This document shows, one piece after another, positions 13,487-64,000 of a stretch of DNA of 64,000 nt; position 1 is the first letter of the stretch; every line of letters begins with the position of its first letter. Made by a program: the position numbers and the translations under genes. The stretch covers positions 137,592-201,591 of the forward strand of contig CAWIXR010000007.1 in assembly GCA_963840145.1 (NCBI GenBank), read 5' to 3'. Source of the DNA: an uncultured Chloroflexia bacterium. Its GTDB lineage: Bacteria; Chloroflexota; Limnocylindria; QHBO01. The notes under the pieces are model-generated. The model saw only the letters and a list, made by a program, of their open reading frames with translations, ran no database searches and was not told where the DNA came from.

Positions 13487-13493
13487 CTTCGCC

Positions 13494-45005: not shown

Positions 45006-45135
45006 CGACCGACCTCTTGAGAGTGAATGGAGCTTCTGGTAAGAACCGTGCACCCGATGCTAGAAACGGGATGTGCCGGGCGCGATGCCCCGTTGGTACC
45101 GATTTGGCCCCGACATCGGTTCCGGTCGCGTCTTC

Positions 45136-46402: not shown

Positions 46403-46500
46403 AAGAGACGACAGGGGAGCGCCACCGCGCTGAGAGTGCGACGTCGAACGTCGCAGACCCTCGAACCTGATCCGGGTCATGCCGGCGAAGGAAGTCGATG
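46403..46500 (+). promoter_or_regulatory. TPP (THI-box) riboswitch
   Basis: acaGGGGAGCgccaccgcgCTGAGAgtgcgacgtcgaacgtcgcagACCCtcgaACCTGATCCGGGTCATGCCGGCGAAGGAAgtcg matches the THI-box core. TAGGCT at 46383-46388 is a possible -10. Thiamine genes lie downstream. Confidence 0.85.
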
Positions 46501-46592
46501 CAGCCTCATCACGGCGCGCCTCAGATCTCGGTCTCGTTGACCGATGCCGGCGCGCCGTTCGTCGTTTCGCGGACCGAACCGTTGGAGGACCG

Positions 46593-47246: not shown

Positions 47247-47830
47247 CCACCACCTCGCCGGACCGCGAACGCGGCTGGCGCACCGTCGACATCGTCGTGG
47301 CGGCCGTGATCGCGGTCGCGTTCGGCGTCGTCTTCCAGGCCTGGAACGTCGTGTGGGAGGCGACCGCCTTCGTCGCCCCGCCCGTCCGCGGCGCCTTCTA
47401 CGGCGTATGGATGATCCCCGCGGTGATCGTGCCGCTGATCGTGCGTCGCCCCGGCGCCGCGCTGTTCGGCGAGGCGGTCGCGGCATCGGTGTCGATGGTG
47501 CTCGGCGCGCAGTGGGGGCTGCTGGCGATCGTCTATGGCCTCGCCCAGGGTGCGGCCGCCGAGCTCATCTTCGCCTTCGGGCTCTACCGGCGTTGGAACC
47601 TGCTCACCGCCGTCGGCGCCGGGGCCGCCGCGGGCTTCGCCGGCGCGCTCATCGACCTGGCGGTGTACTACCCCGACTGGGGCGCGGACTGGCAGCTTCT
47701 GTACTCGGCGCTGGTGGTCGTGAGCTCGGCGGCGGTCGCCGGCATCGGTGGATGGCTGCTCGTGCGTGGTCTCGCCGCCACCGGCGTCCTGCGCGAGTTC
47801 GAGGTCGGGCGCGAGCAGCCGGAGGTCTGA
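47243..47830 (+). CDS. ECF-transporter S component, YkoE-type (HMP/thiamine)
   Basis: 195 aa with about 6 TM helices, in the first transporter position of a THI-box-controlled ykoEDC-like operon. ATGA overlap with the TPK gene. Confidence 0.7.
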   Translation: MTTTSPDRERGWRTVDIVVAAVIAVAFGVVFQAWNVVWEATAFVAPPVRGAFYGVWMIPAVIVPLIVRRPGAALFGEAVAASVSMVLGAQWGLLAIVYGLAQGAAAELIFAFGLYRRWNLLTAVGAGAAAGFAGALIDLAVYYPDWGADWQLLYSALVVVSSAAVAGIGGWLLVRGLAATGVLREFEVGREQPEV

Positions 47831-47855
47831 CCGCCGAACCGCCGACAATGCCGGC

Positions 47856-49313: not shown

Positions 49314-50113
49314 TGCGCCTCCTCGCCCCGATCGATCCGGCACCAGACGCGCCGCTCGCCCGCGCCAACCCGCTGGCGAAGCTCGCCGCCGCGCTCGTCC
49401 TCCTCGTGGCGCTGTTCCTCTCCCTCGACGCCGTCACGGCCGGCGTGATCCTCATCGGTCTCGTGCTGGTCGTGCCGTTCGCCGGCATCCCGGTCCCGGC
49501 GCTCGTCCGACGCACGTGGCTGATCGGGCTGGCGGCGGCGATCGTCGGCGTCGTGAACGTCGTCTTCGCGGCCGAGCAGCTTGGGCCGACGGTCGTCTCG
49601 ATCGGCCCGCTGGAGGTCGGCGGCGAGACCCTCGTCAACGGCATCGGCCTCGCGCTGCGCCTGCTGGCGATCGGGCTGGCCGGGATCCTCGCCACGGCGA
49701 CGAGCCAGCCCACCGACATGGCCGATGCGCTCGTCCAGCATCTGCGCGTCTCGCCGCGCTTCGCGATCGGGGCGCTGGCGGCGATGCGCCTCGTCCCGCT
49801 GCTGGCCGCGGAGTGGCAGATGATCGGCCTCGCGCGGCGAGCCCGCGGCGTCGATGCCGGCCGCTCGCCGCTCGCCGCCGGGCGGCTGTGGATCGGCAAG
49901 CTGGCCTCGCTCCTCGTGCGGGCCGTGCGGCGGGCGAGCCGCCTCGCGCTCGCGATGGATGCCCGCGGCTTCGGCGCGCTCCCCGGCCGCACGAACGCGC
50001 GAATCTCGCGGTTCCGGCCGAGCGACGCGGCCTGGGTCGCCGGCGCGGTCGCCCTGGCCGCGATGGCCGTCGGCGTGAGCCTCGCCCTCGGAGCCTGGCG
50101 GCCGCTCGTCTAG
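49313..50113 (+). CDS. ECF-transporter T component (EcfT/CbiQ/YkoC-type)
   Basis: 266 aa, polytopic. ..ALRLLAIGLAG..ARRARG.. pattern. Its start shares a base with the ATPase stop. Confidence 0.8.
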   Translation: MRLLAPIDPAPDAPLARANPLAKLAAALVLLVALFLSLDAVTAGVILIGLVLVVPFAGIPVPALVRRTWLIGLAAAIVGVVNVVFAAEQLGPTVVSIGPLEVGGETLVNGIGLALRLLAIGLAGILATATSQPTDMADALVQHLRVSPRFAIGALAAMRLVPLLAAEWQMIGLARRARGVDAGRSPLAAGRLWIGKLASLLVRAVRRASRLALAMDARGFGALPGRTNARISRFRPSDAAWVAGAVALAAMAVGVSLALGAWRPLV

Positions 50114-51420
50114 CGCGGGATCGAGGTGGTGTGCCCCTCGATCGGGCCGAGCCAGGTCGGGGCGTGGGCGACGCCGACGTAGCGCATCGGGTCGAACGGC
50201 TCGAGCGACAGCGTGCGCGCGCGGCCGCCGGCGATCAGCTCGGCGAGGAGCAAGCCGAGAACGGGGGCATACGGGAGCCCGTGGCCGGTCAGCCCGGCGC
50301 CGACGTAGGCGCCCGGCAGCGGCGTGCCGTTCTCGGCGGGCAGCGGCCCGGCCATCGGCATCTCGAGGGAGGCGAAGTCGAGCAGCCCGGCCCAACAGCG
50401 CACGATCCGCGCATCGGCCAGGCGCGGGTGGAGCGCTGCGATCAGGCCGGCCGGTCGCGGCGGGACGCCGGGGCGCACGCGCATCGAGTAGGAGCCGATG
50501 CCCATCCCCTCGTCGCTGACCGCGAAGCCGCCGATGACGACCTCGCCGGTCCGCATCTGGCGCCAGTACTCGTTGCACCGGTTCGTCTCGAAAGCGGGCC
50601 TGCCGATGCTGAATGTCAGCGCATCGGTCACGCACACCGTCTCGCGGATCGGCGTCAGGTTGGCCGCGAGATGCGGCGCCAGCGCCGGCGTCCAGGCGTT
50701 CGTGGCGAGCAGCACCGCCCCGGTCGAGACATCTCCGTGCGAGGTGGCGACGCCCGTGAGGCGGCCGCCGCTCGCCAGCAGCCGCTCCGCGCGCACGCCG
50801 GTGATGACCGCTCCGCCGGCGGCCCGCACCGCGTCGAGCAGGGCGAAGCAGAGGCGGAACGGGTTGAGCTTCGCGTCCTGCGGCGTCCACTTCGCGGCGC
50901 GGACGGTGTCCGGGGCGAGGCCCGGCGCCAGGTCGTCGAGCTCCGCGCCGGTGACGATGCGGACCTCCAGCCCCTCGCCGGCCTGCAGCCAGGCCATGTG
51001 GCGGATCAGCTCCTCCTCCGACTCCTCGGTGGCCAGGTCCAGCGAGCCGAAGCGATCCCACTCGATCCCGCCCGGCAGCTCGGCGTCCCATGCCTCGAGC
51101 ATGTCCAGCGAGCGCATCGTGTAGTCGAGGATCGAGCGGCCGCCGGATTCCTGGACGAGCTTCGTCACCCGCGGGAAGTGCCCGCCCAGCCCGGCCAGCG
51201 CCATGCCCGCGTTGCGGCCCGAGGCGCCCCACGACGGCGAGTTGGCCTCGATGACCAGCGGACGCATCCCGGCCCGCGCGAGGTGGTAGGCCGACGACGC
51301 GCCGAGCATGCCGGCCCCGATCACGACGACCTCGGCTGCGGTCGGCAGCTCCGCGCGCGGGTCGGGGACGAACGGGACCGGCTGGGGCGGCGGAGAGAGG
51401 ACCGGCGCGGGTTGGGACAT
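50110..51420 (-). CDS. FAD-dependent oxidoreductase (DAO/DadA family)
   Basis: ATG 51420. ..VVVIGAGMLGASSAYHLARAG..SGRNAG.. Only the last 436 aa of the 726-aa track ORF are coding. Confidence 0.75.
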   Translation of the reverse strand: MSQPAPVLSPPPQPVPFVPDPRAELPTAAEVVVIGAGMLGASSAYHLARAGMRPLVIEANSPSWGASGRNAGMALAGLGGHFPRVTKLVQESGGRSILDYTMRSLDMLEAWDAELPGGIEWDRFGSLDLATEESEEELIRHMAWLQAGEGLEVRIVTGAELDDLAPGLAPDTVRAAKWTPQDAKLNPFRLCFALLDAVRAAGGAVITGVRAERLLASGGRLTGVATSHGDVSTGAVLLATNAWTPALAPHLAANLTPIRETVCVTDALTFSIGRPAFETNRCNEYWRQMRTGEVVIGGFAVSDEGMGIGSYSMRVRPGVPPRPAGLIAALHPRLADARIVRCWAGLLDFASLEMPMAGPLPAENGTPLPGAYVGAGLTGHGLPYAPVLGLLLAELIAGGRARTLSLEPFDPMRYVGVAHAPTWLGPIEGHTTSIPR

Positions 51421-51447
51421 GCCGGCGCCGAGCGTACCATCGGGCCG

Positions 51448-52437
51448 ATGCCACGCTCCGAAGAGATTCGCCTTCGCGCCGGCGAGATCGGCCTTGCCGC
51501 GACGCTGACCCTGGCCGACGGCGAGCCCGCCAGGCGCCTGCCGTGGGCGCTGCTCGTGCCGAGCTGGCTGCCGCGCGGCCGGGACGGCGGCTGGGACCGA
51601 GTCGGACACCCGGACTGGTTCGCGCCTTCGTCCCCCGGTATCGGGCTCTTCGAGCGCCTGGCCGATGCTCTGGCGGCGCGTGGCGTGGCCAGCCTGCGCT
51701 ACGACCCGCGCGGCTGCGGCGAGTCCGGGGGCGACTGGGCCGCCTCGAACCTGTTCACGCGGATCGACGACGCGCGCGACGCGATCGGCGCGATGCGCTC
51801 GCGGCGCGAGCTCGACCTGCGGCGCACCGCGATCGTCGGCCACGGCGAGGGAGCGGTGATCGCCATCAGCGTGGCGATCGGTGACCCGGCAATCGGCGCG
51901 GTCGGGCTCATCGGTCCACCGGCGAGGTCCTTCCGCGACGTCCTGCGCCGTGGGGTCGCCGAGCGGCAGCGGACCGGGACCGATCGCGAGCATCCGGTCG
52001 TCGCCGCGCTCGACCTGGCCGCGGAGGAGCTCATCGAGCGAGCGGTGCGGCGCGAGGCCGAGATCGAGCTGCGGGTCGCCGACGCATCGGTCCGGCTGTC
52101 GCTCGCCGGCTGGGAGCAGGCGATCCACACGCCGGCGCTGGCCTTGGCGACGATGCTGCACCGCCACACCGTGATCGCCCACGGCTCGCGCGATGCCTGG
52201 GCCGACCCCGACGAGTCGCGGCTGCTGGCCGCGGTGCTGGCGGAGGCCGGCACCCGGCCGTCCGTCCAGGTCGTCGAGGGCACCGGGCACGACCTGGCCG
52301 AGGCTGATGACGACCGCATCGGTGCCTTCGCCGATGCGCTGATTGCCGGGATGGAGCCGCGCGAGCTGCCGCCGGTGCTGGTGGCGATCGAGCAGATGAC
52401 CGGCGATCCCGGCACGACGCTAGACTCTGGCTCGTGA
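51448..52437 (+). CDS. alpha/beta-hydrolase-fold protein without the nucleophile serine
   Basis: ATG 51448 lies 7 nt after TACCAT. ..LRYDPRGCGESGG.. The elbow IVGHGEGAV has Gly where Ser is expected. ..HGSRDAWAD.. and ..GTGHDL.. are retained. Confidence 0.65.
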   Translation: MPRSEEIRLRAGEIGLAATLTLADGEPARRLPWALLVPSWLPRGRDGGWDRVGHPDWFAPSSPGIGLFERLADALAARGVASLRYDPRGCGESGGDWAASNLFTRIDDARDAIGAMRSRRELDLRRTAIVGHGEGAVIAISVAIGDPAIGAVGLIGPPARSFRDVLRRGVAERQRTGTDREHPVVAALDLAAEELIERAVRREAEIELRVADASVRLSLAGWEQAIHTPALALATMLHRHTVIAHGSRDAWADPDESRLLAAVLAEAGTRPSVQVVEGTGHDLAEADDDRIGAFADALIAGMEPRELPPVLVAIEQMTGDPGTTLDSGS

Positions 52438-53285: not shown

Positions 53286-53517
53286 CCCCGCTCCAGCGCT
53301 GATGCCGGCCGGCCCGGTCCCCTGATCGGCATGGGGGGAAGCGGCCGGCTCGGCGCACGAGACGGACCCGGTCCGGCCCGCCTGGCGACCGATGAGCTGT
53401 CACGTTCGTCGGCTACGCTTGGCGGGCCGTGCCGACTCACCACCAGCTTCGACCTTCGCCCGGCGTTGATCGCCGGGCTTCGTGCACCCGCCGCTCGGCT
53501 ACCCTGACGCGGATCGC

Positions 53518-54612
53518 ATGAAGCTGCTCCACTTCGCGGACCTCCATCTCGACGCCCCGTTCGCCTGGGCGTCGCCGGAAACGGCTCGCGCGCGACGCCG
53601 GAACCGGCGCGAGGCGCTCACCCGGATCGTGGCGCTGGCCGAGGCGGAGGAGGTCGACGCGATCCTCGGCGCCGGCGACCTGTTCGAGCAGGACCGCATC
53701 GGTCCGGACACCGTGGAGTTCCTGCGCAGCACCTTCGAGCGCACCGATCGCCGCGTCTTCCTGGCCCCGGGCAACCACGACTGGCTGTCGGCGCGCAGCC
53801 CGTACGCGCTCGTCGAGTGGTCGCCGAACGTCCACGTCTTCACCGAGTCCGCGCTGCGGCCGGTCGCGCTCGACGACGGGCTGACGCTGTGGGGCGCCGC
53901 GCACCGCGCGCCGGCCAACACCGACGACCTCTTCGCCGGCTTCCACGTCGATCGCGGCGGGATCAACCTTGCGCTGGCGCACGCGTCCGAGCGGGCCACC
54001 CTCGCCTGGCAGGAGTCGGGCAAGGCGCCGCACGCGCCGTTCGACGCAGCGGCGTTGCCGGCGACCGGCCTCGCCCACGCGTTCCTCGGCCACTACCACC
54101 TGCCCCGCGACGCCGAGCGCCACACCTACCCGGGCAACCCCGACCCGCTCGACTTCGGCGAGACCGGTGAGCGCGGTGCGGTGCTTGCGACCATCGCCGC
54201 CGATGGCACGGTCACGCGCGAGCGGCGCGACGTCTCGGTCAGCGAGGTCCACGACCTCGAGGTCAACGTCGACGGCGCCACGCACTCCGACGAGGTCGCC
54301 GCGATCGTTCGAGAGCGCCTCGCGCCGCTGGCCGGCTGCGTGCGGGTCACGCTCTCCGGTGAGCTGGCGCCGTCGGTGCAGCTCGACCCGCGCGAGCTCG
54401 AGCGGATCGGCGGTCACCTCGAGGGCCTGGTCGTGCGCGCGGGCGGCCTGAGGATCGGCTACGACCTCGTCGGGATCGGCGCGGAGTCGACGGTGCGCGG
54501 CCAGTTCGTTCGCTCGGCGATCGAGGAGATCCGCGACCCCGAGCTGCGACGGCGGGTGATCCTGACCGGGCTGCGAGCGCTCGAGGGCCGCGGCGACCTG
54601 GAGGTGGCCTGA
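53518..54612 (+). CDS. SbcD/Mre11-like metallophosphoesterase (YhaO-type DNA repair exonuclease)
   Basis: MKLLHFADLHLD..GAGDLFE..LAPGNHD..GHYH.. Confidence 0.8.
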   Translation: MKLLHFADLHLDAPFAWASPETARARRRNRREALTRIVALAEAEEVDAILGAGDLFEQDRIGPDTVEFLRSTFERTDRRVFLAPGNHDWLSARSPYALVEWSPNVHVFTESALRPVALDDGLTLWGAAHRAPANTDDLFAGFHVDRGGINLALAHASERATLAWQESGKAPHAPFDAAALPATGLAHAFLGHYHLPRDAERHTYPGNPDPLDFGETGERGAVLATIAADGTVTRERRDVSVSEVHDLEVNVDGATHSDEVAAIVRERLAPLAGCVRVTLSGELAPSVQLDPRELERIGGHLEGLVVRAGGLRIGYDLVGIGAESTVRGQFVRSAIEEIRDPELRRRVILTGLRALEGRGDLEVA

Positions 54613-54613
54613 G

Positions 54614-57388
54614 ATGCGGATCGAGCGCGTGACCGCCCACGCCTTCGGCCCGTTCAACGGTGAGTCACTCGAGCTGGCGCCGGGGCTCACGGTCGTCAGC
54701 GGCCCGAACGAGGCCGGCAAGTCGAGCTGGCACGCCGCCATCCGGGCCGGCATCGGCGGGGTGCGTCGCGGGCGCGGCGCGGGGACGAGGGTCGAGGCGG
54801 CCTTCGAGGAGCGCCACAAGCCGTGGGACGGCGACGGCCGCTGGGCGGTCGAGGTTCGCCTCGCGCTCGACGACGGTCGGACGATCGAGATCAGCCAGGA
54901 CCTGGCGGGCAAGGTCGCCTGCCGCGCGACCGATGTCGTCCTCGGGCGCGACGTCTCCGACGAGATCATGGACGGCACGCCCGACGCCTCGCGCTGGCTC
55001 GGCCTCGACCGCGAGGCCTTCGCCGCCACGATCTGCGTCGGCCAGGCCCAGATCGCCACGATCGCCAACCGCGACACCGCCGCCTCGCTGCAGGAGCACA
55101 TGCAGCGCGCCGCAGCCACCCGCGGGACCGATGCGACCGCCGCCGAGGCACGAGAACGGCTGAAGGCGTTCGCGCGCGACCAGGTCGGCGTCGATCGCCA
55201 GGGGGCGCGAGGCCCGCTGCGGAGCGCGAAGGAGCGTGTCGAGACGGCGCAGGCGGCGCTCGCCGAGGCCCGCGCGCGCCACGAGGCCTTCCTCGACGCC
55301 AGCCTCAGCGCCGAGGCCGCGGAACGGGATGCCGCCGCGCAGGGCCGGCGCGCGCTCGCGATCGAGTCCGCGCTCGCCGCCCGCGCCGCGACCGATCTCG
55401 CCCGCCGCGCCGAGCGTGCCACCCGGCTCGCCGAGCTCCATCCGAGCGAGCCTGCCGGGCTCGCGGACCGCGACGCGCGTGCCGATGCCGTCGCCGGCGC
55501 CCTGGACGCCTGGCACGGCCGGCCACGGCCGGAGCCGCTGACCGGCACGAGCGCCGCCGAGCTCGAGGCCGAGCTCGCTGCGCTGCCCGCGCCGCCCGAC
55601 GGCGACCTTGAGCTCCACGCCTCGGTGGTCGAATCGCGCCGCGCCCTCGATCGGGCCGATGACGCGCTCGGAATGCTCGGGCCGCGCCCGTCCGCGCCCA
55701 ACCCGCGGAACGGTCCGAGCGAGGACGAGCTCCGTGGCCTCGCCCGGAGCCTGCGCACGCCCGATCCACCGGCCCGGCCCGAGCTCGAGGCGGAGCTGCG
55801 CGCGGCCGAGCAGGATCTCGCGGTGGGTCGTGGCCGTCGCGGCCCGCGCTGGATCGTCGCCGCCACTCTGGCCGCCGTCGCGGCGATCGCCGCCTTCGTT
55901 GTCGGGCAGATGCTGGTCGCGGTCGCGGCCGGTCTGATGGCCGTGGGTCTCGCTGCCTGGGCGTGGCTCGCGGGCCGAAGCTCCGATGCCGCGGGGCGGG
56001 TCGAGCGTGCTCGCGCCGCGCTCGCGCCCATGGAGCTGGCGCGGGACGCGGCCCGCGCTGAGCGCGACGCGGCGGCCGATGCAGCGCGCGCCGCGGGCCT
56101 GCCGGCCGATCCGACCGAGCTCGAACGACGAGCGGACGACGCCGCGGCCGGGGTGCGCGCCGCGCGCGAGGCGGCGGCCTGGGACGAGCGGCGAGCCGAC
56201 CTCACCGAACGCCGCGACCGGTCCGCCTCGGCACTGCGCGATGCCCTCCGCGCGCGCGGCGTTGAGCCGACCGACGACCTCGCGGCCGCGACGGCTGCCT
56301 ACGAGGCCGAGTGCCGGCTCCGCGCCGATCGGTCGCGCCGCGCCGGCAACCGTCCGGCCCTCGAGCGTGCCCTCGCGACGCGGCGCGAGGCAGAGGCGGC
56401 GGCCGCGGAAACCGCGCGCTCTGCCGCGCGTGCCGAAGGCGCGCTTCGCGCGGTCGCCGCGGATCTCGGGCTGCCGGCCGAGGTGCCGCCGGACGAGCTA
56501 TCCCAGGCGCTCGCTGCCTGGCAGCGGGCACGGGGCGAGGAGGCAGAGCGGGCCGACGCGGCGCGTCGCGAGTGGCATGAGCTGACGACGCTCCTCGCCG
56601 GCCGGCCGCTCGATGCGTTGCGCGCCGAGGCCGAGTCCGCGGCCGGCAAGGCCGCGTCACTTGTCGCGAAGGTCGACCCGGCCGAGCTCGCAGCGCTCGC
56701 GCCGCATGGCGACCTCGCCGCACTCCTGGAGGTCGAGCGCGACGAGCTGGACCGCGCAAGGGAGGGGGCGAGCACGCAGCGCGGCGCGCTTGCAGAGATG
56801 CAGCGCGACCTGCCCGACGTCGCCGAGGCCGAGGAGGCGTTGGCGGACGCGACCGCCGAGCTAGCGCGGGTCATCGGCCTCCAGGAGGTCCTCACCGAGA
56901 CGGCTCGCCTCCTGCGCGCCGCCGAGGAGCGCGTCCACCGCGACCTCGCGCCGATCCTCGCGGCCGCCATCACCCGCTGGCTGCCGCGCGTCAGCGGCGG
57001 CGCCTACGTCGATGCGTCGGTCGATCCGGCCGACCTGTCGGTACGGGTCAAGGAGGCGAGGAGCGGTCGCTGGCGGTCGGCGCTGCTCCTGTCGGAGGGC
57101 ACCCGCGAGCAGGTCTACCTGCTGCTGCGCGTCGCGATGGCCCAACAGCTGGCCACGACCGGCGAGACCGCGCCGCTCCTGCTCGACGAGGTCACCGTCC
57201 AGGCCGATGCCGAGCGCAAGCAGCAGCTGCTCGGCGTCCTCCACGAGCTGAGCGCAGAGCGCCAGATCATCCTCTTCACCCACGACGACGACGTCGTCGG
57301 CTGGGCCGCGCGCGTGCTCACCGGGTCGCGTGACCGCCTCGTGGAGCTGCGGGCGACGGCCAGCGCTCCGCAGGCGGCGCTCGGCTGA
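54614..57388 (+). CDS. SbcC/Rad50-like AAA ATPase with an internal membrane hairpin (YhaN-type)
   Basis: Walker A GPNEAGKSS. Long Ala/Arg/Glu coiled-coil regions. Two TM helices (WIVAATLAAVAAIAAFVVGQ / MLVAVAAGLMAVGLAAWAWLAG). Signature LSEGTREQ. Walker B LLLDEV. Confidence 0.8.
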   Translation: MRIERVTAHAFGPFNGESLELAPGLTVVSGPNEAGKSSWHAAIRAGIGGVRRGRGAGTRVEAAFEERHKPWDGDGRWAVEVRLALDDGRTIEISQDLAGKVACRATDVVLGRDVSDEIMDGTPDASRWLGLDREAFAATICVGQAQIATIANRDTAASLQEHMQRAAATRGTDATAAEARERLKAFARDQVGVDRQGARGPLRSAKERVETAQAALAEARARHEAFLDASLSAEAAERDAAAQGRRALAIESALAARAATDLARRAERATRLAELHPSEPAGLADRDARADAVAGALDAWHGRPRPEPLTGTSAAELEAELAALPAPPDGDLELHASVVESRRALDRADDALGMLGPRPSAPNPRNGPSEDELRGLARSLRTPDPPARPELEAELRAAEQDLAVGRGRRGPRWIVAATLAAVAAIAAFVVGQMLVAVAAGLMAVGLAAWAWLAGRSSDAAGRVERARAALAPMELARDAARAERDAAADAARAAGLPADPTELERRADDAAAGVRAAREAAAWDERRADLTERRDRSASALRDALRARGVEPTDDLAAATAAYEAECRLRADRSRRAGNRPALERALATRREAEAAAAETARSAARAEGALRAVAADLGLPAEVPPDELSQALAAWQRARGEEAERADAARREWHELTTLLAGRPLDALRAEAESAAGKAASLVAKVDPAELAALAPHGDLAALLEVERDELDRAREGASTQRGALAEMQRDLPDVAEAEEALADATAELARVIGLQEVLTETARLLRAAEERVHRDLAPILAAAITRWLPRVSGGAYVDASVDPADLSVRVKEARSGRWRSALLLSEGTREQVYLLLRVAMAQQLATTGETAPLLLDEVTVQADAERKQQLLGVLHELSAERQIILFTHDDDVVGWAARVLTGSRDRLVELRATASAPQAALG

Positions 57389-57391: not shown

Positions 57392-58111
57392 ATGCCCGAT
57401 GACCGGCTGCCCACGCCCGAGCGGGTGCTCGTCGTGGCCGCCCACCCCGATGACATCGAGTTCGGCGCCGCGGGCACCGTCGCCCGCTGGGTCGGCGAGG
57501 GCACGAACGTGCGCTACCTGCTCGCGACGCGCGGGGACAAGGGCAGCGACGACCCGAGCACCGATCCAACTCAGCTCGGCGCCCTGCGCGAGCGCGAGCA
57601 GCGCGCGGCGGCCGCGGAGATCGGCGTCGAGGGCGTCGACTTCCTCGACGAGCCGGACGGCCAGGTGCTGCCGACGCTCGAGCTGCGCGAGCGGATCACC
57701 CGCGCCATCCGCGAGCTCAGGCCGGAGGTCGTGATGACCCACGATCCGACGGTGCTGTTCGTGAACAACGAGTGGGTGAACCACCCCGACCATCGCGCGG
57801 TCGGCCAGGCAGCGATCGACGCCGTCTTCCCGACGGCGCGCGACCCCTTGAACTTCCGCGAGCACCTCGACGCGGGCCTCCAGCCGTGGAAGGTCGCCGA
57901 GCTGTTTCTGTGGAGCACGAACGAGGCGAACCAGCTCGTCGACATCGGCGAGACGCTCGAGGCCAAGATCGCGGCGCTCAGCCGGCACGCGAGCCAGTTC
58001 CGGTCACTCGACGAGATCGCGCGCTGGGTCCGGCGCCGCAGCGAGGAGCTCGGCGAGCGCGCCGGCTACCGCGCCGCCGAGGGCTTCCGCCGCGTGACGC
58101 TGGCCCGATGA
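57392..58111 (+). CDS. PIG-L/LmbE-family deacetylase
   Basis: ..VLVVAAHPDDIEFGAAGT..HPDHRAVG.. Confidence 0.8.
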   Translation: MPDDRLPTPERVLVVAAHPDDIEFGAAGTVARWVGEGTNVRYLLATRGDKGSDDPSTDPTQLGALREREQRAAAAEIGVEGVDFLDEPDGQVLPTLELRERITRAIRELRPEVVMTHDPTVLFVNNEWVNHPDHRAVGQAAIDAVFPTARDPLNFREHLDAGLQPWKVAELFLWSTNEANQLVDIGETLEAKIAALSRHASQFRSLDEIARWVRRRSEELGERAGYRAAEGFRRVTLAR

Positions 58112-60123
58112 TCCGCCGAGGGGGAGTGGCCGCCCTCGTCCTGCTGCTCGCCGCCTGCGTTGCCGAGCCGACGCCCGAGCCGACGCCGGGGCCGACCACC
58201 TTCCCGATCGCCGGCCCGGACGCGGCCGCGGCGGTCGCCGACGGGTTCGTCGCGGCCTGGACCGCGGGCGACTACGCCGCGATGCACGCCACGCTCGATC
58301 CGGCGCTCCAGGCCCGGTACCCGCTCGAGGCGTTCAGCGAGCTGCATGCCGCGTTCGGTGAGCTGGCGCGGGTCACCGACATCGGAGCGACGCTCGGCGC
58401 GCCGCTGACGATCGGCCTGCCGGCCGAGCCGCGCCCCGACGCCTTCCCGGTGCCGACCGCGACCCCGATCCCCACGCCGAATCCCTCCGCCGGCGCCGCG
58501 CCATCGACAACGCCGGCCCCGACCGCGCCGCCGTTCGACCCCGAGCGGCCGCTCGCCGGCCCGGTGCCCGCGCTCTCGGTGCCGATGGCGCTGGCCGTCG
58601 CCTCCGAGCGGTTCGGAGAGCTCGACCTCGAGCGCGCGCTGACCCTCGTCCACGGCCCGGACGGCTGGCTCGTGCGGTGGACGCCGGAGCTGCTCTTCCC
58701 CGAGCTCGGGCCTGACGGCACGTTGCGGCTCGACCGCGAGCTCGGGGCGCGCGGGCGCATCGTCGGTGCCGGCGACCTCGTGTGGGCCGAGAACCGCGAC
58801 GACGGCGCGCGGGTCTACCCGCAGGATGCGCTCGCCGGCCAGGTCATCGGCTACGTCAACGAGGTGACCGCCGAGGAGCTCGCGACGCTCGAGGCCGAGG
58901 GCTACCTGGCCGGCGACGTCGTCGGGCGCTCTGGACTCGAGTCCGGCGCCGAGGCGATGCTGCGCGGCACGCCCGGCTGGTCGCTGGTGGCGGTGCCCGC
59001 CGAGGGCGAGCCATCGGTGCTGCTCGAGACCGAGATGGTTCCCGGAGCCGACGTCGCGATCACGATCCGGCCGGCCATCCAGCTCGCCGCGCAGGACGCC
59101 CTGTCGGCCCATGCGGAGGGCGCGACCGCCGTCGTCGACCCGCGCAGCGGCGACGTGTTCGCGCTCGCCAGCCAGCCGGCGTTCAACCCGAACTCGATGA
59201 CGGTCGGCACGACGATCGGCGGCGTGCCGCTGAACCCGGCCGGGCAGGGCCAGATCCTCAACCGCTCGGTGCGCGGCGCGTACCCGGCGGGATCGTCGTT
59301 CAAGCCGTTCACCCTGATCGCCGCGCTCGCGACCGGCGTCGTCACGCCGTCGAGCACCCGCACCTGCCCGCCGACGTGGCAGTACGGCGACTTCACGTTC
59401 CGCAACTACATGGACCACACGCTGCCGGGCCAGGTCGGCTTCGCCGAGTCGATGGCCTTCAGCTGCAACACGACCTACATGCCGCTCGCCTTCGAGGTCT
59501 ACCAGGCCGAGGAGACCGCCCTGACCGACCTGCTCAAGGACTTCGGCTTCGGCGCGCCGACGGGCATCCGCTACCTCGGCGAGGAGACCGGGATCGTGCC
59601 CGACGACGACTGGCTGCGCGAGAACGGGCGCGGCGGCTACTCGGGCTTCGAGCAGGTCCAGCTGGCGATCGGCCAGGGCGCCTTCCTCGGCACGCCGCTG
59701 CAGCTGGCGAACGCGTACGCCGCCATCGGCAACGGCGGACGGCTGTGGACGCCGAGGCTCGTCACCAGCGTCACGCTGCCGGACGGCACCGTCGTCGAGG
59801 AGATCGAGCCCGCGGCGGCCAACGACATTCCGGTCGACGCCGCGGACCTCGCCTACGTGACCGATACGCTCCAGGCGGTCGTGACCCTGCCCTACGGCAC
59901 CGGCACCGCCGCATTCGCCGGCTTCGGGATCCCGGTGGCGGGCAAGTCGGGCACGGCCGAGTCGGGCGCTGCCGACCCGCACGCCTGGTTCCCCGCCTAC
60001 GCCCCGGCCGACGATCCGACGATCAGCGTGGCCACCGTCCTGCCCTACCTTCCGCTCGGCACCGGCGGCGACAACGCCGCGCCGCTCGTGCGGCGCGTCA
60101 TGGCGACACACTTTTCCGAGTGA
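58108..60123 (+). CDS. class B penicillin-binding protein (transpeptidase) with an NTF2-like N-domain; lipoprotein
   Basis: Lipobox LLLAAC. ATGA overlap with the upstream gene. SxxK (GSSFKPF), SxN (FSCNT), KSGT (GKSGTAE). Confidence 0.85.
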   Translation: MIRRGGVAALVLLLAACVAEPTPEPTPGPTTFPIAGPDAAAAVADGFVAAWTAGDYAAMHATLDPALQARYPLEAFSELHAAFGELARVTDIGATLGAPLTIGLPAEPRPDAFPVPTATPIPTPNPSAGAAPSTTPAPTAPPFDPERPLAGPVPALSVPMALAVASERFGELDLERALTLVHGPDGWLVRWTPELLFPELGPDGTLRLDRELGARGRIVGAGDLVWAENRDDGARVYPQDALAGQVIGYVNEVTAEELATLEAEGYLAGDVVGRSGLESGAEAMLRGTPGWSLVAVPAEGEPSVLLETEMVPGADVAITIRPAIQLAAQDALSAHAEGATAVVDPRSGDVFALASQPAFNPNSMTVGTTIGGVPLNPAGQGQILNRSVRGAYPAGSSFKPFTLIAALATGVVTPSSTRTCPPTWQYGDFTFRNYMDHTLPGQVGFAESMAFSCNTTYMPLAFEVYQAEETALTDLLKDFGFGAPTGIRYLGEETGIVPDDDWLRENGRGGYSGFEQVQLAIGQGAFLGTPLQLANAYAAIGNGGRLWTPRLVTSVTLPDGTVVEEIEPAAANDIPVDAADLAYVTDTLQAVVTLPYGTGTAAFAGFGIPVAGKSGTAESGAADPHAWFPAYAPADDPTISVATVLPYLPLGTGGDNAAPLVRRVMATHFSE

Positions 60124-60273
60124 GATGGCCATTGAGGTTGACCATCCCAACGGACCGAGCCAGCCGGTGCCGCATGGGTCGCCTTGCAGCACGCACGACC
60201 GAACGGGTAGCATCGGCCCTGCCGCTCCTGTCAGCCTGATGGTCTAACGCCGCCCGGAGAGAGCGACGACGAC

Positions 60274-62247
60274 GTGATCAGCGATACCGCGATTCCACTG
60301 AGGTTCCAGACCGCCGAGGTCGGCGTCGACTGGCTTCAGTGCAATATCGAGTGCCAGGAAGGCTGCCCGGTCAACACGAACTGCCGCGGCTACCTGATGC
60401 TGGCCGCCGAGGGTCGCTTCGAGGAGGGCTACATCCTCGCCCGCGACCCGAATCCGGTCGCCGCGATCTGCGGATACGTCTGTTCCGCTCCCTGCGAGAA
60501 GGCCTGCCGGCGCGCCGACATCGACAAGCCGCTCGCCATCCGCGCGATGAAGCGCTTCCTCGTCGACTGGCACTACGGCAACAACATGCCGGACAACGTC
60601 GTCGTCGCGCCGCCAACCGGCCGCAGCGTGGCCGTCATCGGTGCCGGGCCTGCCGGCCTGGCCGCGGCAAAGGAGCTCGGCGGCTGGGGCCACGAGGTCC
60701 ACGTCTACGAGGCCCTCCCCTCGGGCGGCGGCACGACCCTCATCGGCGTACCGGCATTCCGGCTGCCGCGAGACGTCATCGAGCTCGACGTGAACTGGGT
60801 CGCCAAGCATGGCGTGCAGTTCCACTACAACGTCGAGATCGGCCGCGACGTGACCCTCGACCAGCTCCGCGAGCGCCACGACGCGGTCGTCGTTGCCACC
60901 GGCTGCATGTACCCCGTCGCGATGAACGTCCCCGGCGAGGAGCTTGACGGGGTCATCTACGGCGTCGACTTCCTCAAGCGCGCCAACCTCGGGCAGCCGC
61001 AGTGGGTCGGCGAGCACGTCGTGATCATCGGCGGCGGATATACGGCCATGGACTCCAGCCGCACCGCCCTGCGCCTTGGTGCGAAGTCCTCGACGATCCT
61101 CTACCGGCGCGGGCCGGAGGAGATGGTCGTCGACGAGGAGGAGCAGCACGAGACCCGTTTCGAGGGCGTGAAGTTCGAGTACTTCGCCTCGCCCGTCGAG
61201 GTACTCGCCGGTCCGGACGGCCGCGTGAGCGGGATGGTCTTTCAGCGCACGCAGCTCGGGCCGCCGGACGCCACCGGGCGCCGGAGCGCGGAGCCGATCC
61301 CCGGCAGCGAGTTCACCGTCCCGTGCGACATGGTCATCCCCTGCACCAGCCAGGCGTCGGACAACAACGTGCTCGGCGAGTTCGGCGCGAAGCTGAATCG
61401 CCACATCGGTGTCACCGACACGCGCACCGTCGTCGATGGCGGGTCGCTCTCCTCGTGGCGCACGGAGCCGCTGAACGGCTCGACGCCGAAGGACGCCCAG
61501 GGGCAGCCGATGAACAACCTGGCCTTCGAGTTCAACCGCGGCAACGTCGCGATCAACGCCGACACCTTCGGGACGACGAGCGACGGGATCTTCGCGGTCG
61601 GCGACTTCGTGACCGGGCCCGCCACGATCATCGAGGCCGCGGGCCTCGGGCGCCGCGCGGCACGATCCGTCGACCGTTGGCTGGCCGGGGTGCGCGGCGA
61701 GGAGCTCGAGGAGCTGCCGGTCATCAACCGCGCGGTGATCACGCAGAGCCTCGACCACGACATGCCGCGCTTCTACGAGGCCACCCGCCGGCAGGAGATC
61801 CCGATGGCGCCGCCGGAGCTGCGCCGCGACTTCACGAGCCTCGTCGAGGTCGGCTACGACACTCGCGGGGCGATCGCCGAGGGCACGCGCTGCCTGCAGT
61901 GCAACCACAACATCAACATCGACGGGCCCCGCTGTATCCTGTGCGGGCTCTGCGCCGACGTCTGCCCCGAGGGCGTGATCTACATGGTCGACAAGGCGCA
62001 GGTCGGCGGCGACGACCCGGAGCAGGACTTCTTCCAGGCGTGGCCCCGCGGAATCGCCATGATCATCGACGAGGAGCGCTGCATCCGCTGCAACCTCTGC
62101 GTCGAGCGGTGTCCCACCAACTGCATCACGATGGACCGGCTCGAGCTCGAGCGGTTCACGCCTGACGGAAAGGTGCTCTTGGAGAGCTACAAGGACAACG
62201 TCCTCGGACAGGTCGGCCAGCAGGCCGGCATGGCGGTCGACCGATGA
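60274..62247 (+). CDS. GltD-like NAD(P)-dependent iron-sulfur flavoprotein with a C-terminal 2x[4Fe-4S] ferredoxin module
   Basis: [15 protein letters not shown] and [13 protein letters not shown] clusters. [14 protein letters not shown] and [12 protein letters not shown] dinucleotide folds. [17 protein letters not shown] and [12 protein letters not shown]. Confidence 0.8.
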
Positions 62248-62978
62248 GCAACGGCGAGCGCAACCCGATCGTGCGCGCCGTGACCGAGTCCGGGGTCTGG
62301 CGCAGCCTCTTCCGCCAGCCGTACCCGACCACCAGCCGCACCCGCGCGCTGGCGGTCATGAACAACGTCTTCCTGCACCTGCACCCGGTGCGCGTGAAGC
62401 GCCACGCGGTGCGCTACACGTACACGTTCTGCCTGGGCGGGATCAGCTTCTTCCTGTTCCTGGCGCTCACCGTCACCGGGCTGTACCTGATGTTCTTCTA
62501 CGTCCCGTCGGTGAGCAGCGCCTACGACGACATCCTCTCGATCGAGGCCTCGGTCGCCTTCGGCAGCTTCGTGCGCAACATGCACCGATGGGCGGCGCAC
62601 CTGATGGTGCTGACCGTCTTCCTGCACATGATCCGCGTCTTCTACCACGGCGCCTACAAGCCGCCGCGCGAGTTCAACTGGGTCGTCGGCGTGGTGCTGC
62701 TGTTCTGCACCCTGTGGCTGAGCTTCACCGGCTACCTGCTGCCGTGGGACCAGATCGCGTTCTGGGCGATCACGGTCGGCACGCAGATGGCGCAGTACGC
62801 GCCGATCCTCGGCCCCGAGACCGGCTTCTTCCTGCTCGGCGGCATCCAGGTCGGCGAGGACACGCTGCTGCGCTTCTACGTGATGCACGTGATCGCCTTC
62901 CCCCTCATCACCGCCATCTTCCTGATCGTCCACTTCTGGCGCATCCGGAAGGACGGCGGCATCAGCGGCCCCGTGTAG
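62244..62978 (+). CDS. cytochrome b6-type (N-terminal cytochrome b) subunit
   Basis: ..[53 protein letters not shown].. (four His ligands). ATGA overlap with the upstream gene. Confidence 0.9.
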
Positions 62979-62996
62979 CCTCCAGGTGATGGACCG

Positions 62997-63614
62997 ATGA
63001 CGATCGAGAAGCGACCGAACCGCACCGCCGACAAGAACGCCCCGACCCAGGCGCCGGACCGGGCGCCGATCGTCGCGCCGACGACGGGTCCCAAGCTGCC
63101 CGGCCCGCCCGGCGTGCCCGGCACGGAGCGTTTCCGGCTGCTCGCCTACGTCAAGCAGGAGTCGATGGTCCGCGTCGACAAGCGGCCCGACGAAACCGTC
63201 CTCACCTGGCCGCACCTGCTGCGCGCCGAGTTCGTGATGTCGACGCTCATCCTCGTGCTGCTCGTCATCACCTCGGTCTTCATCCGCGCCCCGCTCGAGG
63301 AGATGGCCAACCCCGCCGTGACGCCGCACGTCGCCAAGGCGCCGTGGTACTTCCTCGGCCTCCAGGAGATCCTCAGCTACTTCAACGCGACCGTCGCCGG
63401 CGTGGTGGTGCCGACCTTCTACCTCGTCGGGCTGGCCGCGATCCCCTACATCGACCGCTCGCCGTACAAGGCGGCCCGTGACCGCAAGCTGATGTGGGTC
63501 TTCTTCCTGTGCCTGATGATCGGCGGGCTGCTGACGACCTTCATCGGCTCCTTCTTCCGCGGTCCGGGATGGAACTGGGTCTGGCCGTGGGAGGGGCTGT
63601 TCTTCAACCTATGA
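62997..63614 (+). CDS. cytochrome bc complex subunit IV (C-terminal cytochrome b equivalent)
   Basis: ..TWPHLLRAEF..AKAPWYFLGLQEIL..PYIDRSP.. Three TM helices. Confidence 0.85.
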   Translation: MTIEKRPNRTADKNAPTQAPDRAPIVAPTTGPKLPGPPGVPGTERFRLLAYVKQESMVRVDKRPDETVLTWPHLLRAEFVMSTLILVLLVITSVFIRAPLEEMANPAVTPHVAKAPWYFLGLQEILSYFNATVAGVVVPTFYLVGLAAIPYIDRSPYKAARDRKLMWVFFLCLMIGGLLTTFIGSFFRGPGWNWVWPWEGLFFNL

Positions 63615-63820
63615 CCCACCAGCAGTCGTACGGCGAGGTCAACGGTCCGCCGACCGGCGAGATCACGCGGCGGGGCTTCATGCGCCGCATGCTCGGCGTC
63701 GGGGTCGGCATCCTGTCGCTCGAGTTCCTCGGCGCCTCGCTGGCATTCCTGTGGCCGAACCTGAGCGAGGGCCTCGGCGCCGAGATCACGCTGGGACCGC
63801 GGAGGACATCGCCTCGCTGA
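63611..63820 (+). CDS. Rieske-type subunit, N-terminal segment with Tat signal (frame ends prematurely)
   Basis: ATGA overlap with subunit IV. ..GEITRRGFMRRMLGVGVGILSLEFLGASLAFLWP.. TGA at 63818-63820, but the coding signal continues in another frame. Confidence 0.7.
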   Translation: MTHQQSYGEVNGPPTGEITRRGFMRRMLGVGVGILSLEFLGASLAFLWPNLSEGLGAEITLGPRRTSPR

Positions 63821-64000
63821 ATCCGACCTGGGCGGAGGGCCTCCCGTTCATCTACAACCAGGCCAACCTCTTCTTCGTCAATGTGCCGGCCGCGATGGCG
63901 CGCGTCGAGAGCGAGGGCCCGCCGGCCGGAGCCGATCAACGACCCCGGCGGCAACGTCGACGAGGAGCTGCCGCTGCCGGAGCGGTCGGTGCTGGCGCTG
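63799..64000 (+). CDS. continuation of the Rieske-type gene in shifted frames (partial, runs off the window)
   Basis: From 63799: TAEDIASLNPTWAEGLPFIYNQANLFFVNVPAAMARVESEGPPAG. From about 63929, back in the original frame: EPINDPGGNVDEELPLPERSVLAL. Both stretches have near-uniform G/C third positions. Confidence 0.55.

Follow-up and report, generated by a model that had tools for sequence, protein, structure and literature searches.

A GltD/NfnB-type flavoprotein gene heads a Rieske/cytochrome b6-type operon in Limnocylindria and may encode an NADPH-linked n-side subunit

The 3' end of the window (the whole 64,000-nucleotide stretch of DNA analysed here) holds the 5' two-thirds of an operon for a Rieske/cytochrome b6-type ('b6c') complex, putatively menaquinol-oxidising, the first gene of which encodes a GltD-like flavoprotein. 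The host is a soil member of the Chloroflexota, class Limnocylindria, and not the high-GC Gram-positive-type organism suggested by the first-pass annotation. The identities of the genes are hardly in doubt, and the flavoprotein probably belongs to the complex, either as a subunit or as a dedicated partner. Our overall reading, which we offer tentatively, is that of an n-side flavoprotein subunit in a respiration-driven NADPH generator; a net direction from quinol to NADP+ is possible and is advanced with reserve. As a working hypothesis, the sequence data fit a quinol:NAD(P)+ function, and also electron flow in the opposite direction.

The flavoprotein gene (60274-62247, on the + strand like all features below; GTG start, 657 aa) was assigned from Pfam, NCBIfam and motif matches, and a Shine-Dalgarno-like GGAGAGAG, read from the sequence, lies about 10-14 nt upstream (60256-60263). 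The stop codon overlaps the start of a cytochrome b6-type gene (62244-62978, 244 aa) in an ATGA at 62244-62247. The gene for subunit IV, the C-terminal half of cytochrome b, follows (62997-63614, 205 aa), and a second ATGA (63611-63614) joins its stop to the start of the Rieske Fe-S subunit gene, of which the window contains the N-terminal 130 codons (63611-64000). The three genes upstream of the Rieske gene are intact at these positions and have a GC3 of 0.92-0.93, which marks them as coding sequence rather than chance ORFs. A search of 59800-64000 gave no sigma-70-like promoter, and no terminator-like site was found between the genes of the operon. In relatives, the full operon comprises the flavoprotein, cytochrome b6, subunit IV, the Rieske protein, a membrane-anchored dihaem cytochrome c and two small membrane proteins.

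Pfam and motif searches agree with the initial description of a 657-aa GltD-like flavoprotein with two Cys clusters, two dinucleotide folds and a C-terminal double [4Fe-4S] module. The Pfam domains are Fer4_20 (residues 21-103), Pyr_redox_2 (118-374) and a C-terminal 2x[4Fe-4S] dicluster domain (553-617). The N-terminal 380 residues are GltD/NfnB-like, with two Cys clusters (C23/27/31/37 and C66/70/74/78), an FAD fold and an NADPH fold, the dinucleotide motifs being GAGPAG (123-128) and GGGYTA (253-258, then LYRR). A clade-specific loop (370-403) separates this part from the ferredoxin domain, which has C554/557/560/564 and C603/606/609/613, with an extra CxxC (C540/543) beside it. Sixteen Cys are invariant among the 75 homologues compared. 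Conservation extends to the FAD motif and to the NADPH 'YRR' motif, and the YRR segment aligns with NADPH-binding relatives. An AF2 model (pLDDT 81.5, pTM 0.84) gave NfnABC (9bov_A), StnABC (8oh5_C) and NfnABC (9n5u_A) as best Foldseek matches, followed by NfnB, GltD and DPD; the predicted fold is closest to that of the bifurcating subunits of NfnABC and StnABC, which bind NADPH. Neither a signal peptide nor a transmembrane helix was found in the 657 residues, and the protein is predicted from its sequence to be a cytoplasmic GltD/NfnB-type NADPH Fe-S protein.

Cytochrome b6 matches PF00033 (E 3e-44), NCBIfam cytb_ExtP (295.8 bits, cut-off 290) and, as its best PDB match, the b6 of b6f (E 7e-49). 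Residues 60-244 align with b6 of 1q90, 6rqf and 1vf5; the haem-ligand His are 114/128 and 215/230, and Cys63, within the CLGG motif that forms the haem cn site, stands opposite b6 Cys35. A conserved HLHP motif (His45, His47) lies in the N-terminal extension, and HxHP is kept at the cytochrome b N-terminus in 7 of 7 aligned flavoprotein-linked sequences from seven lineages. Subunit IV, assigned from PF00032, sequence and hydropathy, contains three hydrophobic helices together with the Qo motif APWY (KAPWYFLGLQE). Its alignment with Aquifex and bovine cytochrome b falls in the C-terminal half of those proteins, and that with b6f subunit IV is weak.

We propose that the flavoprotein would serve the complex as an additional subunit on the cytoplasmic (n) side. 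It would be an NfnB/GltD-type module that combines an NADPH site and FAD with some four [4Fe-4S] clusters, which form a wire. This wire would dock on the n-side face of the cytochrome b6 dimer and join haems bN/cN, and a further haem, held by the conserved HxHP histidines near the cytochrome b N-terminus, may be involved. Quinol would be oxidised at the Qo site, one electron passing to a Ser/Tyr-type Rieske centre of presumably high potential, then to the dihaem cytochrome c and a terminal oxidase. The low-potential electron would cross via bP to bN/cN, from where it could either reduce quinone at Qn, as in an ordinary Q cycle, or travel along the Fe-S wire and FAD to NADP+. If this is true, the complex is a respiration-driven NADPH generator. 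The motif CxCHGSxY, with the Ser and Tyr hydrogen-bond donors, is present in all flavoprotein-linked Rieske proteins; it is a predictor of Rieske potential, not a fully reliable one. By our estimate, NADP+ reduction would be thermodynamically borderline, with cytochrome c at about +250 to +300 mV and the membrane potential opposing the transfer of the low-potential electron. It should be noted that Limnocylindria are presumably aerobic heterotrophs, and the absence of an obvious need for reverse electron flow counts against a quinol to NADP+ direction.

The Fe-S wire would in principle be reversible, and the same docked complex could run from NADPH through FAD, the Fe-S wire and haems cN/bN to quinone at Qn, which we consider rather unlikely. 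Combined with Qo turnover, this would yield a proton-translocating NADPH:cytochrome c oxidoreductase, the other form being a plain NADPH:menaquinone reductase, and it would resemble the FNR/ferredoxin input into chloroplast b6f proposed for cyclic electron flow. Transfer from NADPH (-320 mV) to menaquinone (about -74 mV) is exergonic, with no charge moved against the field, and in those GltD and DPD modules that have been characterised, electrons pass from NADPH to Fe-S. Moreover, in Acidobacteriota and Bacteroidota the cluster runs on into cbb3 oxidase genes, so that flavoprotein, Rieske/b, cytochrome c and oxidase make up a complete NADPH-to-O2 chain in a single cluster; that these clusters read equally naturally in this sense counts against the quinol to NADP+ direction. 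The Chloroheliales include the type-I-reaction-centre phototroph Ca. Chlorohelix (PMC10972752), in which a cyclic route via a b6f-like complex would be plausible, and FNR co-purifies with b6f (cited in PMC5600118). However, the site has the NADPH-type YRR motif, and respiratory oxidation of NADPH, as opposed to NADH, is unusual. Flow from NADPH also leaves unexplained both the high-potential Ser/Tyr signature of all linked Rieske proteins and the enrichment of the linkage in reverse-electron-flow lineages (anammox bacteria, Nitrospinota).

Gene order was compared in 80 species-level loci of the window's clade and 80 Limnocylindrales loci (about 160 Limnocylindria species). The order flavoprotein, cytochrome b, subunit IV, Rieske, cytochrome c is kept in every sufficiently long Limnocylindria/Chloroheliales locus (11/11 in Chloroheliales), and this, with the two ATGA overlaps, bears out the tight operon linkage originally claimed. 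Within the operon, the gene for the flavoprotein is the best conserved in the window's clade (84-98% identity, vs. 46-83% for Rieske and 44-86% for cytochrome c). Homologues with 30-37% identity lie directly 5' of Rieske/cytochrome b genes in Nitrospirota, Nitrospinota, Acidobacteriota, Bacteroidota and a 'Deltaproteobacteria' MAG, in clusters where the order of the remaining genes varies; the linkage thus exists well beyond anammox bacteria. In metagenomes, 44 of 58 evaluable flavoprotein loci have a cytochrome b gene, directly 3' of the flavoprotein in 43 of these. Three of the nine distant homologues with context inspected are stand-alone genes, and these are closer to the window flavoprotein (37-42% identity) than the Rieske/b-linked group 1, of the Nitrospirota/Acidobacteriota type (30-34%). 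The linkage may therefore be of multiple origin, or not obligatory.

These data bear on the idea that the flavoprotein is a soluble, separate NADPH:acceptor oxidoreductase (SfrB-like or ferredoxin-linked, for example), co-transcribed with the complex and unbound to it. The protein has no membrane anchor, which counts against a subunit role, and belongs to a large family (3830 representatives at E<1e-30) that includes stand-alone genes and homologues annotated in sources as 'formate dehydrogenase (NADP+) beta subunit' or 'glutamate synthase beta-like'. We nevertheless find a separate enzyme improbable: among about 170 species-level loci of Chloroflexota, all that are long enough keep the genes adjacent, as do the five further phylum-level groups despite the reordering of other genes; they are translationally coupled in the window's clade; and no GltB, NfnA or formate-dehydrogenase catalytic partner, nor any other, is encoded near the flavoprotein gene. 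Consistent with a subunit role, all subunits of the analogous complex of Kuenenia stuttgartiensis co-migrate (PMC5600118, PMC12954380).

The fourth gene had been described as a Tat-signal Rieske gene starting at 63611. The RR motif (TRRGFMRR), membrane anchor and overlap are indeed present, but the ORF stops after 69 codons, and two frameshifts break the gene. An alignment of the DNA to five relatives, together with three-frame translation, places a 1-nt deletion after 63792, between ACGCT and GGG (63790-63820), followed by the premature TGA at 63818-63820. A compensating 1-nt insertion in the CCGCCGGCCGG run (63920-63926) restores the original frame, as seen in the stitched translation. With both indels corrected, the 130 Rieske residues share 82-88% identity with their counterparts in three relatives (L003-L005). 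The window end (64000) cuts the gene just before the CPHLGC box, and the cluster motifs are seen only in syntenic relatives, with full-length orthologues of 213-218 aa containing CPHLGC...CLCHGSKY in L001 and L003-L005. The two frameshifts are most likely assembly errors. A genuine pseudogene in a decaying operon, with a non-functional complex in the window genome, would account for the in-frame stop and the two indels relative to the five relatives, but is highly improbable, given that conserved residues are still encoded in the shifted frame across the 131 nt between the indels, that these are +1 and -1 and both within G/C runs, that the three upstream genes are intact with the GC3 given above, that a related MAG (L008) of the MFD-named series, which we take to be long-read-derived, has a private +1 indel in its Rieske gene, and that matches are fragmented in relatives of this series.

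Anammox bacteria were cited in the first-pass annotation as the only precedent for this architecture. The window complex is, however, a member of the 'APWY clade' defined by Kao and Hunte in 2014, Chloroflexi included (PMC4122944), which equals 'subfamily G' of cytochrome b of Dibrova et al. 2013/2017 (PMC5600118); it has the split cytochrome b, CxGG motif and Qo motif APWY of this clade, with no difference found. The clade is taxonomically scattered (Chloroflexi, Nitrospirae, Planctomycetes, delta-Proteobacteria) and co-occurs with large NAD(P)-binding Fe-S oxidoreductases (PMC4122944, PMC5600118), a link already reported by Kartal, Dibrova, Kao and Hunte, and Hauser. It is biochemically uncharacterised in vitro and in vivo (PMC4122944, PMC12954380). 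The proposal of a wider uncharacterised class thus holds for its spread across phyla and its biochemistry, but the class had already been noted in the literature; we found no specific description of Limnocylindria or Chloroheliales in the papers on the APWY clade/subfamily G.

The Rieske/cytochrome b complexes of Kuenenia (Kuste4569-4574 and Kustd1480-1485; Kartal 2011/2013; de Almeida 2016; Hauser 2025, PMC12954380) also have a b6-like four-helix cytochrome b, a separate subunit IV, a haem cN site and a Rieske protein with Ser/Tyr donors, for which potentials of +303 and +335 mV are reported (PMC12954380). Both kinds of operon include a gene for an NAD(P) oxidoreductase that has FAD and about four Fe-S clusters, and in AlphaFold3 models of the Kuenenia complexes a path leads from haem to FAD by way of four Fe-S clusters (PMC12954380). 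Conserved and presumably equivalent His occur in both cytochrome b N-termini (Kuenenia His43/His62; HxHP His45/His47 in the window). In contrast to Kuenenia, with its hexa- or octahaem cytochrome, the p-side partner in window-type operons is an ordinary membrane-anchored dihaem cytochrome c, and an HAO-like protein is lacking. Subunit IV has three helices vs. five in Kuenenia, and the gene order differs, with the flavoprotein first and Rieske fourth in the window. The hosts differ as well, an anaerobic chemolithoautotroph with an anammoxosome vs. a presumably aerobic Chloroflexota heterotroph.

With the b6c complexes of Firmicutes/Heliobacteria (QcrABC/PetABCD) and cyanobacterial/chloroplast b6f, the window complex shares split cytochrome b6 and subunit IV, a b6-type His spacing (14/15), the cysteine that binds haem cN covalently, a Rieske protein exported by the Tat pathway and a c-type subunit with one or two haems; chloroplast b6f, in addition, binds FNR peripherally. 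The canonical operons, however, lack a flavoprotein gene, their Qo motif is PEWY or PDWY instead of APWY, and the window cytochrome b has an N-terminal extension of about 28 residues carrying HxHP. The flavoprotein itself resembles NfnB, the 'NfnA' of NfnABC, StnC and GltD (PDB 4ylf, 5jca, 9bov, 9n5u, 8oh5, 6s6s) over residues 20-380, in both fold and cofactor motifs, has a ferredoxin-like domain after the GltD-type part as in NfnABC/StnABC, and shares the NADPH 'YRR' segment. Unlike these proteins, it has no C-terminal formate-dehydrogenase-like domain, and in place of an NfnA, HydBC-like or GltB partner, its genomic partner is a membrane Rieske/b complex.

The flavoprotein gene starts with GTG, preceded by GGAGAGAG at 60256-60263 (+ strand), and is the first of three intact genes arranged head to tail on the + strand: the flavoprotein gene itself (60274-62247, 657 aa), a cytochrome b6 gene (62244-62978, 244 aa) and a subunit IV gene (62997-63614, 205 aa). 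Pfam and motif searches bear out the genes and domains proposed for this region in the first-pass annotation, and both of the ATGA stop/start overlaps that it named (flavoprotein/cytochrome b6 and subunit IV/Rieske) are present. The GC3 of all three genes is 0.92-0.93, in surrounding DNA of 68-78% GC, indicating that they are real coding sequences. A scan of 59800-64000 found no promoter-like site, and terminator-like sites occurred at chance level; this result is neutral with regard to the transcription unit.

The flavoprotein contains Fer4_20, Pyr_redox_2 and C-terminal dicluster ferredoxin domains (Pfam). Its cysteines lie at C23/27/31/37, C66/70/74/78, C540/543, C554/557/560/564 and C603/606/609/613, and 16 are invariant in an alignment of 75 sequences spanning down to 34% identity. 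The nucleotide sites are GAGPAG (FAD) and a GGGYTA...LYRR segment that lines up with the NADPH site in NfnA, StnC, NfnB and GltD. The sequence has neither a signal peptide nor a membrane helix. In an AF2 model (pLDDT 81.5, pTM 0.84), disorder is confined to the loop 370-403 and the termini. In fold, the protein comes closest to the NADPH-binding subunits of two bifurcating enzymes, NfnABC and StnABC, with structural alignments of 630-700 columns that include the ferredoxin domain, followed by NfnB, GltD and DPD. Residues 370-403 (window 61381-61482, pLDDT <50) correspond to a clade-specific insertion: about 35-40 residues here have no counterpart in the 616-aa Limnocylindrales orthologue, and they account for most of the difference in length between the two proteins. 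The N-terminal Fer4_20 domain, the two Cys clusters and the FAD and NADPH Rossmann folds are those of an NfnB/GltD-type protein. No NfnA, GltB or HydBC-like partner gene is present in the window or the syntenic loci, so the flavoprotein is neither Nfn nor glutamate synthase; identification as a glutamate synthase beta, NfnB or formate dehydrogenase beta subunit was rejected for lack of a cognate partner nearby.

The cytochrome b6 aligns over its full length with b6 of the b6f complex (1q90, 6rqf, 1vf5; E 7e-49). It has four helices, with His114/128 in helix B (spacing 14) and His215/230 in helix D (spacing 15), as in b6. Cys63, in the sequence FCLGG, is aligned opposite b6 Cys35, the haem-cN cysteine of the CxGG motif, and an N-terminal extension of about 28 residues carries the motif HLHP (His45, His47). 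The protein also scores 295.8 bits against the NCBIfam model cytb_ExtP (Geobacter-type, delta-proteobacterial), just above the cut-off of 290. Subunit IV (205 aa, three hydrophobic segments) matches PF00032 with an E-value of 1e-11, and its Qo motif is APWY, within KAPWYFLGLQE. At the axial-ligand position of haem cN, the residue matching Chlamydomonas Phe40 is Glu78 or Phe79, in a weak alignment with an ambiguity of one residue. Judged by the APWY motif, the split cytochrome b and the CxGG motif, the cytochrome b of the window probably belongs to the APWY clade, or subfamily G, as defined by Kao and Hunte (PMC4122944) and Dibrova et al. (PMC5600118); for its phylogenetic position within that clade, the cytb_ExtP match gives an indirect hint.

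The fourth open reading frame, from 63611, encodes a twin-arginine motif (TRRGFMRR) and a hydrophobic anchor, and meets a TGA at 63818-63820 after 69 codons. When its DNA is aligned to that of five close relatives, the window is one base short after 63792 and one base long within 63920-63926, with no other length differences in the alignment. Two single-base corrections give 130 Rieske residues that share 82-88% identity with the proteins from three syntenic loci (L003-L005). The two indels are probably assembly errors in G/C runs: read in the shifted frame, the 131 nt between them retain conserved residues, the Rieske gene of L008, from a MAG of the same MFD-named series, has a private +1 indel, and matches are fragmented in several MFD-named MAGs. 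It is very improbable that the Rieske gene of this genome is instead a very recent pseudogene, and programmed frameshifting was rejected since the five relatives read straight through. A tblastn search for further frameshifts in the window, using relatives' ORFs, gave a signal swamped by spurious long ORFs in DNA of 70-78% GC.

The last Rieske residues of the window are ...SVLAL, where the relatives continue with WRKCPHLGC, the first Rieske box. The window copy thus ends before the CxHxGC...CxCHxS boxes, while its syntenic orthologues contain CPHLGC...CLCHGSKY, and the Rieske identity accordingly comes from synteny rather than from the window itself. The Tat-signal Rieske-type gene of the first-pass annotation therefore stands as regards its RR motif, anchor and ATGA overlap, but not as a continuous reading frame, being frameshifted twice and truncated.

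The host had been described as a high-GC Gram-positive-type genome, which is incorrect. The best 120 flavoprotein matches are 84-95% identical, those with names being Chloroflexota or 'Candidatus Limnocylindria' MAGs, and a scan of species-representative genomes again returned Limnocylindria, with up to 98% identity, plus a few evidently mis-binned contigs. Searching contigs for an exact copy of the window flavoprotein sequence gave no match. A similar scan with P0123, a 49%-identical representative, found only Limnocylindria, through a shared peptide pattern; the P0123 lineage is absent from GTDB species genomes. Our literature search on Limnocylindria respiration yielded nothing usable.

Synteny in relatives was retained at every sufficiently long locus of the window's clade. 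In L001, the locus of a relative whose flavoprotein is 95% identical to that of the window and in which the genes upstream of the operon are also syntenic, the order is flavoprotein, cytochrome b6, subunit IV, Rieske, dihaem cytochrome c, a 197-aa protein, an 83-aa protein and fructose-bisphosphate aldolase, and tblastn recovered this order throughout the clade. The L001 Rieske protein (218 aa) carries CPHLGC...CLCHGSKY. The cytochrome c, which lies beyond the end of the window, has 272 aa, an N-terminal anchor and two CxxCH motifs, and is conserved in relatives. Identities to the window's clade (tblastn) are 84-98% for the flavoprotein, 80-97% for cytochrome b, 46-83% for the Rieske protein and 44-86% for cytochrome c; the flavoprotein is the most constrained gene of the operon. 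The 197-aa multi-pass membrane protein (L001 12569-13162) and the 83-aa hydrophobic protein (13246-13497) have no Pfam match and keep their position after the dihaem cytochrome c across the clade, and went undetected in Limnocylindrales (tblastn). Both are candidates for additional subunits of the complex or for factors in its assembly.

In the sister order Limnocylindrales, the flavoprotein is 59% identical by phmmer and 53% by BLASTP, with more than 500 genome matches, and the same five-gene order is found with short gaps replacing the overlaps. A group of the class Chloroflexia, with 'Chloroflexi bacterium 54-19' and Ca. Chlorohelix among its members, has a homologue 37% (BLASTP) or 42% (phmmer) identical to that of the window. 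In Chloroheliales, the same order is followed by an EB_dh haem protein in all 11 of the sufficiently long loci.

Upstream of the operon lies an SbcCD-like pair (53482-57388, +), consisting of a 376-aa Metallophos nuclease whose stop codon abuts a 924-aa AAA_23/AAA_27/SMC_N ATPase, followed by a PIG-L deacetylase (57392-58111) and a PBP transpeptidase ending at 60123; this block is syntenic with L001 and L002, another relative's locus. A TPP riboswitch at 46403-46510 (+; 64.3 bits, gathering score 54.3) precedes + strand ORFs, including a double ABC_tran ATPase (47724-49313), which probably point to a thiamine-related transporter of the ECF type; in the syntenic L002, ABC_tran, ABC_tran and CbiQ are fused. 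On the - strand, 41697-45059 encodes a 1120-aa protein that combines a MerR-type HTH at its N-terminus with three GAF domains and a GGDEF diguanylate cyclase domain, and 50110-52419 encodes a protein of 769 aa, of which the C-terminal 400 make up a DAO-type FAD oxidoreductase and the N-terminal ~360 have no Pfam match. The window also contains tRNA-Thr(CGT) at 13412-13486 (+) and tRNA-Glu(TTC) at 30446-30522 (-).

In a search of 1.8 billion representatives, similarity dropped steeply after the Limnocylindria proteins, and next came a large family of 560-700-aa homologues, about 40% identical, that have the C-terminal ferredoxin domain in common. Nitrospinota, Nitrospirota, Dehalococcoidia, Acidobacteriota, Bacteroidota and 'Deltaproteobacteria' are represented among its named members. 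The first-pass annotation had suggested searching gene neighbourhoods across phyla, and the association indeed recurs. Homologues lie directly upstream of Rieske/cytochrome b genes in six of nine readable contigs of distant relatives and stand alone in the other three. Among metagenome loci with at least 1.5 kb downstream, 44 of 58 have a cytochrome b gene, directly downstream of the flavoprotein in 43, and most of those without one are partial, generic GltD-like matches.

The gene order varies between the linked loci. It is as in the window in Chloroheliales (L238); flavoprotein, Rieske, cytochrome b, a 274-aa protein and a multihaem cytochrome c in Nitrospirota (L235), with a cytochrome c as the last gene in a 'Deltaproteobacteria' MAG (L257); flavoprotein, fused cytochrome b, Rieske and cytochrome c, with an overlap, in Nitrospinota (L258); and flavoprotein, FixS, Rieske, cytochrome b, subunit IV, two cytochromes c and CcoN in Acidobacteriota (L255), an order shared by Bacteroidota (L256). 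In these last two (L255 6001-13887, L256 6001-13875), a FixS-like gene comes right after the flavoprotein, and the flavoprotein-Rieske-cytochrome b-subunit IV run continues into cytochrome c and cbb3-type oxidase genes (COX1/FixO). All linked sequences examined have APWY in subunit IV, an N-terminal HxHP in cytochrome b and CxCHGSxY in the Rieske protein. The haem-cN cysteine is missing from cytochrome b of L255 and L256, with FGLG or LGLG in place of FCLGG. The window flavoprotein is 37-42% identical to some stand-alone homologues versus 30-34% to linked ones of the Nitrospirota/Acidobacteriota type, which suggests that the Rieske/cytochrome b linkage may have arisen more than once. Beside one stand-alone homologue, on a Nitrospinae contig (L234 10891-17833), is an apparent diversity-generating retroelement with an RVT_1 reverse transcriptase, bAvd and an Mtd/FGE-sulfatase-type target protein, adjoined by phage baseplate genes.

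Topology signals in the sequences point to a cytoplasmic flavoprotein, a Tat-exported Rieske protein and an anchored cytochrome c. We propose that the flavoprotein would dock on the n-side (cytoplasmic side) of the cytochrome b6 dimer, where its Fe-S wire would exchange electrons with haems bN/cN. As to the net direction, we lean tentatively towards electron flow from quinol to NADP+. The Ser and Tyr hydrogen-bond donors, a sequence proxy for potential, are present in the Rieske orthologues, and every linked Rieske protein has this pair, which is associated with high potential. These phyla use menaquinone, as far as known, and a Ser/Tyr Rieske protein working with menaquinone would reproduce the unusual energetics that measurements revealed in Kuenenia. 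Among the lineages with the association are also some that need uphill electron flow for NAD(P)H, and the NADPH-type site is better suited to an anabolic product than to a respiratory fuel. Flow in this direction would, on the other hand, be thermodynamically borderline with a cytochrome c acceptor and against the membrane potential, and the presumed aerobic heterotrophy of Limnocylindria also speaks against it.

The opposite direction, NADPH input at cN/Qn by analogy with FNR on b6f, would be consistent with the Acidobacteriota and Bacteroidota clusters, which read naturally as an NADPH-to-O2 chain; we consider it somewhat unlikely. It is improbable that the flavoprotein is a soluble enzyme merely co-transcribed with the Rieske/cytochrome b genes. 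Electron flow from quinol to NADP+ could be taken further: in Limnocylindria and in other aerobic phyla with menaquinone as the quinone of their cultured members, a b6c complex with the flavoprotein might be the main or only complex III, making NADPH from quinol by bifurcation at Qo. We regard this extension as doubtful. If true, it would provide anabolic reductant without a pmf-driven transhydrogenase or reverse complex I, and a quinol-to-NADPH route in very abundant soil and freshwater bacteria, beyond exotic anammox cells.

Rieske/cytochrome b complexes are textbook quinol:cytochrome c oxidoreductases. Were such a complex to exchange electrons with NADP(H) on the cytoplasmic face, bioenergetics would gain a new reaction, be it NADPH generation by bifurcation or electron input from the n-side. 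Until now, the idea has been built on two experimentally difficult anammox complexes. The flavoprotein module is universally conserved and strongly constrained in a respiratory operon across an abundant soil and freshwater class of Chloroflexota. It is also found in Chloroheliales, which include an enrichment-cultured phototroph, and beside cbb3 oxidase genes in Acidobacteriota and Bacteroidota, offering a wider and more tractable choice of experimental systems. This argues for a general rather than an anammox-specific function. Nothing is overturned here; an NADP(H)-linked Rieske/cytochrome b module becomes a core conserved respiratory component in very abundant bacteria.

Kartal et al. reportedly proposed that bifurcation at the Qo site drives NAD(P)+ reduction in Kuenenia. 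No member of the APWY clade is characterized, and reverse operation has been suggested for it (Kao and Hunte, PMC4122944). In planctomycetes, genes for NAD(P)-binding oxidoreductases occur inside bc operons, with such proximity 'in many other cases' on the tree (Dibrova et al., PMC5600118). With both the clade and the linked oxidoreductases already in the literature, the window operon would belong to a recognized, though uncharacterized, kind. The wider class of Rieske/cytochrome b modules that the first-pass annotation envisaged, with a putative quinol:NAD(P) function, is thus real, but had been noted before. We found no description of an operon of this kind, with a plain dihaem cytochrome c, throughout Limnocylindria and Chloroheliales.

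Like the Kuenenia complexes, the window operon encodes an NAD(P)-binding FAD/Fe-S oxidoreductase. Potentials of +303 and +335 mV were measured for the two Kuenenia Rieske proteins (Hauser et al. 2025, PMC12954380). The AlphaFold3 models in the same study lead from bN/cN through a predicted extra haem, liganded by the N-terminal His of cytochrome b from each monomer, and four Fe-S clusters to FAD. Anammox complexes have hexa- or octahaem cytochromes c on the p-side, with or without an HAO-like octahaem protein, whereas the window's relatives have only a dihaem cytochrome c, with no HAO-like gene at their loci. Similarly, the anammox subunit IV-like protein has five transmembrane helices (Hauser et al. 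2025), in contrast to the three hydrophobic segments in the 205 aa of the window protein; the counterparts have 274 aa in L235 (Nitrospirota) and L257 ('Deltaproteobacteria'), and 311 aa in L238 (Chloroheliales).
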